Assembly (NCBI RefSeq): GCF_013167455.1
Contig: NZ_CP038328.1
Source of the DNA: Escherichia coli O157:H7
GTDB taxonomy: Bacteria > Pseudomonadota > Gammaproteobacteria > Enterobacterales > Enterobacteriaceae
Length of the DNA stretch: 64,000 nt
Direction: 5' to 3' (one strand)
Shown: positions 59,301-61,499 of the stretch, one piece after another
Layout of the letters: every line of letters starts with the position of its first letter
How positions within the stretch are numbered: the stretch's first letter is position 1
Made by a program: the position numbers

Positions 59301-61499
59301 CCATCAAGACAATCCTTAAGTAGTCATGTAAGGATTGCGGAAAGCTTCAATGTGAAAAAAACCACAATCAAATCTGGTGTAATACACACTGTAAAACCTG
59401 CTAATTTAAAAGTGGCTTCTCAACGAATTAAAAGACTTGAAGCAGAAAATGAAGCTTTGAAGGCATTAAATGAACGCTATTTAGAGCAGTTCAAAGTATG
59501 GCTTTATAATGCTCACCTTAAACAAATAACGATTGAAGAACTTAATAATCCGTTACCTGCAAAATACCTTTAATAAAATTGATAGGTTTTAGCTATTGAC
59601 ATGGTGAAATATTATGTTATTTATTTTCTTGTCAGGACGACAAAATTTCACTATTGCAAGGATGCATATTATGGACAAAACAAATATTAACTTAATGGAA
59701 AGGTATCTTCTTCTGCTTGATCGATTCGTTGATAAACTCGCTGAATCAGGTTTCTCAGAGCAACGAATTATCGAACAATCATATCTTTTTTGTGCAGGAT
59801 TTTATATCAAATACCAGAGTGGTATAGAAAAAATGACCTTCTCCAACAGGGAGGTTGTTTTAACCTTTCTGCTACTTTCATATTATAGTCATATAAATAA
59901 ACTGGATGATGATTTGATCAACAAAGAGCGTATGAAGCATGTATGTTCTTCATTGATTAACTTTATAGTCAGTAATGGTAGCCGAACAGAGAAAGTCTAT
60001 GCTAATGAGAAAAGGAAATATGAGGCTTCAACTCTAAAAAGAGAATTATCGAAAAAGGATAAAAGGAAAAGATATAGGTTGTAGTGTTTGTATGATTTTC
60101 ATTAGACTTACTTAATCTATAGTCTAAATTTTAATATTAGATTCGTAAATCTATAATTCCATGAATCTAATTAATGCTTAAAAGCATCCTCTAAGATGCT
60201 TTTACTGTTACCATGCATACATACCCAGAACCTTTAACAAACGATAATAGAGGGGAGTTGTGTATAACAACTCCCTGACCTTACTAAGGTTAGCGATGTT
60301 ATTCAGCATCATTCTGTCAAAGATTTAATTTCTTTGAAAAATACTAATTCTACCCCTTAAGTTAATAACTTCTGCTTGATCGTGTATTTTGGTAAGTTGG
60401 AGTACAATTTTTTGATTGGATCGTCAATAAGAAAAAGCTAGAATCCTTAGAAGGACATAGATTTTCATAGGGTTAAGATATGACGATTGCGAAGGATAGT
60501 TCGACTGATGAAATCATTCATGGAAATGATCTCCGTGGAATGGATGATTTTTACATTAAGACAACGAGTTTTGAATGCCCATACGAGCCTTGTAAAATTA
60601 AAGCCACACCTTGTAGTTTTACTATGAAACATGTTAATCAATCATATTTCAGATATGGCGATAAACATAAGGATGGATGTGGTATTCATGATCCAAGATA
60701 TAAAAACAATCATACTTCAAATGACGAAAGAAAACATAATTCGCCACCTGCTCCGGTTATATCACTTTTAAAAATTGATGTGAAACCAAGAGGTGGTGTT
60801 AAAAATGCCAGAAATATTAAAAATGAAAATCACAAGGATGAAAAAAAAGGTAATGAACATCCTGTATCTTCATCAAGTATTAAGCCAGTCGTTGACTATT
60901 ACATAAATAATAGCAATCATAATGAACAGCTATCAATCCCTCCATATGGCACGCGATCTTATAAAGATACATTTCAACTTATTTTTTACAAAAACAACAT
61001 ACGTTATTACAAACCTGCTATTTATTATGGTGTAGCCCAGTCTAATATTCGTCTGCATGAAGATTCAGATAAACATTGTATTACTTTCCTCGCAAGGGAT
61101 AAGAAAACCCAAAAACCATTTACGCTTGAAATTGATGTTTCTGACTGGAATAAAAGTCAGAAGGATGTGTTTTGGAAGGAATATGAAAAGCAAAGGAAGG
61201 AAGCTGATAGGTATTATAAGGGGCTTAAAGATAAAAGGAATGCTAAAAAATACTTGACGGTTTTCTTTTTTGGGATGCCGGATGAAAATGATAAGTTTCT
61301 ATTTAAGACAAACCACTTTAAATTAGTATATGTGGCTTTCTTGGGTAAATTTGAAAGCTCATATAATGATAGTAATTATTACATTGAAAATGATCTGTCT
61401 GTATCATCATTGAATGAACAACCCATTTCATTATCTGATATAGACCATAAAAATCATGAATATAATATTGAAACTTCATTAGATTTTAGTTCTCCTTTG

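Follow-up and report, generated by a model that had tools for sequence, protein, structure and literature searches.

A conserved small open reading frame and a putative type I toxin-antitoxin-like module in the structured spacer of a GInt-type island of Escherichia coli O157:H7

The DNA analyzed here is a stretch of 64,000 nucleotides of contig NZ_CP038328.1 of Escherichia coli O157:H7 (assembly GCF_013167455.1), hereafter the window, whose numbering is used throughout. It contains a 395-bp spacer between two open reading frames (ORFs) of a genomic island, ORF5 and ORF6. A first-pass annotation had described this spacer as a structured region with perfect hairpins and a recurring motif, which could mark recombinase-binding sites, an element boundary, or terminators and attenuators. 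Upstream of ORF5, four consecutive genes at 55020-59573 abut or overlap and the first two have tyrosine-recombinase matches. This is the composition of the GInt core, namely three genes of the tyrosine-recombinase fold and a small fourth one (ginABCD), as defined by Bardaji et al. (2017; PMC5385486). Specifically, Additional file 10 of Idola et al. (2023; PMC10214605) catalogues ECs_3510 and ECs_3509 of strain Sakai, equivalent to window 57543-59573, as a ginC-ginD synteny block. The recombinase trio and the 132-aa gene are therefore the known GInt ginABCD core, and the spacer is GInt cargo. Within this spacer we identified a conserved small ORF, together with the outline of a putative type I toxin-antitoxin (TA) module.

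Alignment of the spacer to its counterpart in a 73%-divergent island of E. coli GABEEC10 revealed a conserved core of approximately 150 bp, which runs from a terminator-like stem (hairpin 1) to just beyond the perfect hairpin of the first-pass annotation and holds the small ORF. Scanning of all fetched loci, of ORF5-seeded species-representative genomes and of peptide-seeded metagenomes led to four divergent types of this ORF (A-D; 22, 25, 25 and 25 aa), located directly downstream of ORF5 with the exception of one type B metagenome contig. Type A (22 aa) is the version of O157, O121, E. coli GmM066 and Enterobacter genomosp. O. Type B (MNNNLLNLLRIAIFISILLYSQPAY) is found in E. coli GABEEC10, Citrobacter gillenii and three metagenome contigs, the loci returned by the metagenome peptide scan; two of these have the same ORF5 upstream and one stands in a new, different context. 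Type C (MNKKRSRALKVMLFILLMVVSTSVY) is found in Klebsiella indica and E. coli Rb-50, while TUM11353 gave an identical-scoring match known by its score alone, and type D (MKNNHLQVLRMVIFISLLLYSSSLY) in Pectobacterium carotovorum. Reading frame, Shine-Dalgarno (SD) sequence, start codon and length are kept in all types. The ORF and its conservation are seen directly, as are substitutions of the coding type: third codon positions account for 12 of the 19 within-type differences (p = 0.007), and 8 of the 15 codons changed within types are synonymous (p = 0.017). In all versions of the peptide, about 15 hydrophobic residues come after a polar or basic N-terminus; the grand average of hydropathy (GRAVY) is 0.7-1.25 and the best 12-residue hydropathy 2.4-2.9. 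In generic type I TA terms, this is a gene for a small (<60 aa), hydrophobic and potentially membrane-active peptide. That this conserved small gene exists is far better supported than its putative function.

Concerning distribution, the complete spacer was present in 313 of 5426 complete E. coli genomes, in one copy each and always at 95% identity or more, and none of the 40 records listed among these genomes annotates a feature in it. Searches of E. coli genomes with module types B, C and D returned three genomes only. No second copy of the module was detected with nhmmer and a module profile, either in the window or in any fetched locus. Viral contigs, searched by DNA patterns and by peptide scan, gave only an O157-identical contig and chance matches, and a blastn search of a plasmid collection with the four module types gave only irrelevant Riemerella matches.

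The perfect 9-bp inverted repeat GGGAGTTGT/ACAACTCCC (60253-60261/60267-60275, 5-nt loop) was confirmed as first described. The other hairpins, initially placed at 60178-60202, also correspond to a real stem, which is slightly longer than had been noted (10 bp, 60179-60188/60195-60204, 6-nt loop). When the 395 bp were shuffled 3000 times with dinucleotides preserved, 2.4% of the shuffles contained one or more perfect 9-bp inverted repeats with a loop of 3-8 nt, and 0.5% contained two or more; both hairpins are real and beyond chance. Additionally, the interval 60125-60345 folds with z = -7.1 on the plus strand and z = -3.5 on the minus strand. The role suggested earlier for the perfect hairpin, that of a terminator or attenuator, had to be abandoned, as the stem seen here sequesters the SD and the start of the conserved small ORF instead. 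A local stem pairing GGAG with codons 4-6 is predicted in every type, at -20.7 kcal/mol in type A and -8.6 to -13.4 kcal/mol in types B-D. The pairing partners differ: AGGUGA with UCACCU in type D, GGAGUG with CGCUCC in type C, and GGAUUAU with AUAAUCU in type B, with GGAG and CUCC additionally paired in some type B copies. By these per-sequence folds, whose register differs between types, the structure of the stem is conserved and its sequence is not. Such a lock is the expected way of silencing the translation of a small toxic-peptide mRNA.

Hairpin 1 has the consensus AAAAGCAYCC/GGRTGCTTTT in all nine distinct sequences of the four types and includes one covarying pair (C-G/U-A, 4:4). With an A-run on one side and a T-run on the other, it has the form of a bidirectional intrinsic terminator. 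On the minus strand, types B-D have a T-run of 6-8 nt and type A (O157) has one of 4 nt, and the plus-strand T-run is always 4 nt; hairpin 1 should thus be the stronger terminator in the minus direction. Weak Rfam matches to terminator-bearing models also fall on its minus strand. For this hairpin, the first-pass suggestion of a terminator is supported. We propose that it forms the 3′ end of an antisense RNA on the minus strand and terminates ORF5 transcription on the plus strand.

Promoter-like boxes are seen directly on both strands. Directly 3′ of hairpin 1, the motif TGnTAC(T/C)AT is present in types A, B and D and TGATAATCT in type C, and the strong conservation of this site is explained by the extended -10 motif. 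Read from the alignment, this box places the putative mRNA start approximately 40-70 nt 5′ of the small ORF. In types B and D, a small stem at the predicted 5′ end of the mRNA covaries (GGUC/GACC vs. GGAC/GUCC). On the minus strand of type A, the -10 box of a candidate antisense promoter lies 19-27 nt past the stop codon; it is a perfect extended -10 (TGGTATAAT) in GmM066, Enterobacter and Pantoea, and GGGTAGAAT in O157. Types B-D have an invariant minus-strand TTGACA just outside a strong post-ORF hairpin, followed 17 nt on by CATAAG, CATAGA or AATAAG. The antisense RNA predicted from the candidate O157 promoter and hairpin 1 has a folding energy of -45.5 kcal/mol (z = -4.0), and both predicted RNAs fold far beyond shuffles (z = -4.0 to -7.5). 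In a metagenome locus with different flanks (L036), homology extends from the A-run of hairpin 1 to the TTGACA box, so that the conserved unit runs from the minus-strand terminator to the minus-strand promoter. The 5′ untranslated region (UTR) is better conserved than the ORF (e.g., 1/62 vs. 10/66 differences), as expected if RNA pairing is constrained. Finally, Pantoea sp. GD03673 (locus L011, 6505-6560) has a type A spacer with a deletion of approximately 95 bp that took out the 5′ UTR and SD along with the start codon and some 17 codons, while hairpin 1 and the minus-strand TGGTATAAT box are kept; it looks like an orphan antitoxin. The coordinates of all features are given in Table 1.

Table 1. 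Features of the O157:H7 spacer and of its surroundings (window coordinates).
Feature	Position	Strand	Remarks
Truncated ypjA	ends 54291		
AlpA-family gene	54455-54703		
Three consecutive recombinase-type genes	55020-59174		
132-aa gene	59175-59573		
ORF5	59671-60084		137 aa per Sakai annotation; also listed as 59614-60084; stop codon TAG 60082-60084
Mosaic junction	60082-60089		ORF5 stop codon and end of homology to related islands
Spacer (region under study)	60085-60479		395 bp, between ORF5 and ORF6
Promoter-like site TTTTCA-16-TATAGT	60096-60123	+	9/12 match; -10 overlapped by first AATCTATA copy (60114-60121)
Stem-loop ATTAGATTCGT/ATGAATCTAAT	60136-60171	+	11-bp stem; second AATCTATA copy in loop; O157-type spacer only
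Predicted cis-antisense RNA	60174-60340	-	about 165 nt; spans small ORF, SD, 5′ UTR and promoter; predicted from minus-strand promoter and hairpin 1
Hairpin 1, TAAAAGCATC-ctctaa-GATGCTTTTA	60179-60204	both	bidirectional terminator-like
Extended -10-like box TGTTACCAT	60206-60214	+	directly 3′ of hairpin 1; candidate promoter of small-ORF mRNA
SD sequence GAGGGGAG	60250-60257	+	aligned with AAGGAGGTG of other types
Perfect hairpin	60253-60275	+	SD and first two GTG bases pair with codons 3-6; third GTG base in loop
Small ORF, (M)YNNSLTLLRLAMLFSIILSKI	60260-60328	+	22 aa; GTG start; unannotated; putative type I toxin-like peptide
Three more stem-loops	60275-60293, 60295-60310, 60318-60336	+	in and at end of small ORF
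Minus-strand -10 box	60347-60355	-	19-27 nt past stop codon; candidate antisense promoter
ORF6 candidate promoter and 5′ UTR	60439-60479	+	-10-like TAGAAT 60439-60444
ORF6	60480-61778		Pro-Glu repeat tail
Convergent lipoprotein gene	between ORF6 and IS30 fragment		
IS30 fragment	begins 62206		

Judged by analogy of layout, the closest architectural relative of the module is the ibs/sib system (ibsA-E/sibA-E, RF00113). In both, a tiny hydrophobic peptide gene is wholly covered by a cis-encoded antisense RNA (predicted in our case), with the antisense promoter just past the stop codon and a terminator hairpin upstream of the SD, as seen in comparison with K-12 ibsD/sibD and ibsE/sibE. The Ibs layout, in which a basic residue precedes about 15 hydrophobic residues and x-x-Tyr closes the C-terminus, recurs in types B-D, whose peptides align flush with the C-terminus of IbsD/E beyond composition-matched shuffles (p = 0.0025-0.018). 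Ibs peptides themselves are defined by 18-19 aa, an MMK/R start, a hydrophobic run ending in S-F-x-x-Y and a recognizable sequence similarity, whereas the peptides presented here have a 6-residue polar N-terminal extension (MNNN.., MNKKRSR..). Their predicted antisense RNA measures 165-225 nt compared to about 145 nt for Sib, and the module occurs as a single copy per locus on a mobile island, while ibs/sib form tandem copies in the core chromosome. The SIB_RNA model (gathering score 56 bits) gave no match at E ≤ 10 in window 60085-60479 or in the type B module (L004, 13900-14270), while the K-12 controls scored 147.7 bits (sibD) and 142.1 bits (sibE); the module is not a member of the Sib family. 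The tisB/istR-1, dinQ/agrB, zorO/orzO and hok/sok systems likewise combine a small hydrophobic peptide, an SD sequestered in the primary transcript and an RNA antitoxin (again predicted here), and a structure-silenced toxin mRNA paired with an RNA antitoxin is a general principle (PMC2887945; PMC5066626). However, the antitoxins of tisB, dinQ and zorO are divergent or partly overlapping and pair in the 5′ UTR, unlike the complete cis overlap predicted for the module. The NCBIfam TisB and DinQ models matched their controls and none of the module peptides, and there is no sequence similarity.

We interpret the spacer, with a probability of roughly 55%, as a compact, unannotated type I TA-like module that opens the variable cargo of the GInt. 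A short plus-strand mRNA would start from the extended -10 box just past hairpin 1 and encode the hydrophobic peptide, its SD and GTG start being locked in the 9-bp stem; consequently, the primary transcript should be poorly translated. The minus-strand promoter just beyond the stop codon would drive a fully complementary RNA of approximately 165 nt, beginning with a small 5′ hairpin (60318-60336) and using hairpin 1 as its intrinsic terminator. Pairing of the two RNAs would block translation of the peptide mRNA or trigger its decay, like Sib RNAs acting on ibs, and the module would likely serve to stabilize the island or to arrest growth under stress or phage attack. From the arrangement of the sequence we infer that both strands are transcribed, that the ORF is translated into a toxic peptide and that the antisense RNA acts as its antitoxin.

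Several observations weigh against this interpretation. The supplementary lists of Sakai small genes and of EDL933 transcription start sites and the catalogue of small ORFs of Enterobacteriaceae have no entry for the locus, and a promoter scan of the region gave no minus-strand promoter. The -10 of types B-D on that strand (CATAAG) is missing the conserved terminal T, and the O157 antisense -10 is weakened (GGGTAGAAT). Moreover, the copy of O157 (type A) deviates most from the others: it has a GTG start, only 22 aa and no C-terminal Tyr, its peptide shows no Ibs-like alignment (p = 0.72), the changes within type A are 3 non-synonymous vs. 1 synonymous, and no terminator follows the small ORF before ORF6. 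This copy may therefore be decaying or re-wired, possibly being co-transcribed with ORF6. The hydrophobic stretch of the peptides is also short and preceded by Arg or Lys, and covariation statistics are thin because only four sequence types are known.

The small ORF could instead be a genuine membrane-protein gene that encodes no toxin and modulates a membrane protein or an island function, like AcrZ or MgtS; its SD hairpin alone would govern translation and hairpin 1 would merely terminate ORF5. The conservation of the ORF, its coding signature and the SD hairpin fit this explanation equally well, and the short hydrophobic segment with its basic residue and the imperfect minus-strand promoters speak in its favor. 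We nevertheless regard it as unlikely, given that the module extends between a terminator and a conserved -35 box, both on the minus strand, that conservation of the 5′ UTR exceeds that of the ORF, that the Pantoea deletion removed only the ORF and spared the antisense elements, and that the module is carried on mobile islands. Still less probable is a purely regulatory RNA, in which the ORF5 terminator is followed by a structured leader or attenuator of ORF6 and the small ORF is at most a leader peptide. Such a leader would agree with type A, in which ORF6 begins 150 nt downstream of the small ORF on the same strand with no intrinsic terminator in between. Terminator-like sites are also enriched (3 seen vs. 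0.5 expected). In types B, C and D, however, ORF6 is absent and a strong terminator and a convergent gene lie downstream of the module, while the ORF6 homolog of CFT073 lacks the module and has only the proximal 40-50 nt in common. The codon-position bias also argues for selection on the peptide itself.

Recombinase-binding sites, as raised in the first-pass annotation, or an att-type element end, marked by AATCTATA and the inverted repeats, are very improbable. Two facts are in their favor, namely the position of the left edge of the spacer at a breakpoint of homology between islands and one AATCTATA copy upstream of ginA. This motif does recur (60114-60121, 60148-60155, and at 54771 upstream of ginA, the first recombinase gene), but at chance level, as three repeated 8-mers were counted in the spacer against a shuffle mean of 2.9, and the homologous spacer of Klebsiella indica has kept neither of the two spacer copies nor the 60136-60171 stem-loop. 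A comparison with the ginA-upstream region (54704-55019) for shared sub-repeats showed no exact match longer than 9 nt, where shuffles average 9.3, i.e., nothing beyond chance. As for the boundary, the block DUF6387-alpA-ginABCD-ORF5 is kept at 70-97% identity in other E. coli islands as far as the ORF5 stop, and homology ends at window 60082-60089 in five E. coli genomes (80-95% identity); the spacer thus opens the variable cargo. In the other islands, ORF5 is followed by about 57 bp with a bidirectional terminator hairpin, and then by a convergent 221-aa gene and a relaxase gene. In GmM066, an intact O157-type island at thrW, a segment of approximately 2.1 kb, corresponding to the spacer, ORF6 and the lipoprotein gene, replaces the terminator of about 57 bp. 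Its junctions have neither direct nor inverted repeats, and no att-like repeat involves the spacer region, GInt ends being recognized by imperfect direct repeats of 10-17 nt (attL/attR) and an AT-rich 3′ end. Intact islands also extend well beyond the spacer, through the relaxase gene and defense genes. The left edge of the spacer thus reads as a mosaic junction, whose position is seen directly and which does not resemble an att site, and the earlier idea of an element boundary survives in this weak sense only. Separately, a 9-bp direct repeat (GATTTTCAT; 60094 and 60460) was considered as a target duplication and rejected, since repeated 8-mers are at chance and the repeat is not conserved; by our estimate, about one repeated 9-mer is expected for DNA of this length and composition. 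Conspicuous intergenic perfect hairpins can mark hidden small genes, not recombination sites.

Annotation resources offered little for the module. Rfam at permissive thresholds gave only sub-threshold, terminator-driven matches for the spacer and the type B module. NCBIfam returned nothing relevant for the four peptides; it apparently contains no Ibs model, as the IbsD control gave no Ibs match. All nine peptide variants were absent among about 15 billion predicted proteins, where TisB, ShoB and DinQ are present and named, and no mention of ECs3507-ECs3510 or of the peptide strings was found in the literature. Earlier surveys had counted 26 type I toxin loci in Sakai (PMC2887945), and O157:H7 is among the most heavily annotated genomes, yet the spacer is still unannotated in the records listed. 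On a tentative view, to which we give somewhat less than even odds, the module may represent a new type I TA family in the cargo of GInt-type mobilizable defense islands across Enterobacterales. Such a family would combine an N-terminally extended Ibs-like peptide, a translationally locked mRNA and a cis-antisense RNA of 165-225 nt, unannotated in essentially every O157:H7 genome, and would stabilize the island or aid abortive-infection-type defense beside a PD-Lambda-4_B-like gene. If the module acts as we propose, it would add a new type I family and a clear-cut natural case in which SD and start codon stay sequestered across four versions of divergent sequence, together with a candidate maintenance or defense function for GInt-type islands, the cargo biology of which is little studied.

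The remainder of the spacer is also worth describing. Its left part (60085-60178) is in part common to the K. indica spacer, where the TATAGT box is retained. The interval 60096-60208 holds in sequence a promoter-like site, an 11-bp stem and hairpin 1 with its UUUU, and may encode a further plus-strand RNA of about 75-80 nt that would precede the small ORF. At the right end, TAGAATC and an ATTTT(C/T)AT..AGG block are common to the region upstream of the CFT073 ORF6 homolog, and the last 40 bp or so before ORF6 probably carry the ORF6 promoter. Residues 151-284 of ORF6 match the PADLOC model PD-Lambda-4_B (E = 1.9e-7), and its CFT073 homolog (67% identical) is located immediately upstream of a Qat anti-phage system; ORF6 may be a defense gene. 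Its Pro-Glu repeat (CCGGAA-type, window ~61450-61760) differs in length among O157 strains, the matched span of one 3026-bp query ranging from 2900 to 3087 bp across the records listed, and behaves as a variable-number tandem repeat within a coding gene.

Concerning the host island, window 59000-62000 is 100% identical to many O157:H7 chromosomes, and in Sakai the region corresponds to ECs_3513 to ECs_3506, where the ypjA side of the CP4-57 remnant meets prophage Sp17. On the Sakai chromosome (NC_002695.2), the spacer maps to 3,493,091-3,493,485 and the small ORF to 3,493,242-3,493,310, complement strand. Compared to Sakai, the window has a 1922-bp deletion at 54291-54293, by which the 3′ end of ypjA (autotransporter) and most of the DUF6387 gene ECs_3514 were lost. 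The GInt is the host element of the module, and the spacer is cargo DNA in the terms of previous work (PMC5385486; PMC10214605), which described GInts as non-mobilizable and with their cargo directly after ginD. In contrast, a conserved ORF5 follows ginD here in two gin operon types, and intact islands have a relaxase gene. In E. coli the ginABCD core is always located 3′ of DUF6387-alpA, and at least two operon types (1206/1314/1632/399 bp and 1212/1362/1887/396 bp) occur between the same alpA and ORF5. In the intact relatives (L003, L005-L008, L010 and L033), a relaxase/mobilization gene is convergent with ORF5, and beyond it the islands hold variable defense-type cargo (TIR, SIR2, ABC-three-component, DNA methylases, TrlF, HNH). 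In O157, the relaxase/defense part of the island was lost to the IS30 fragment.

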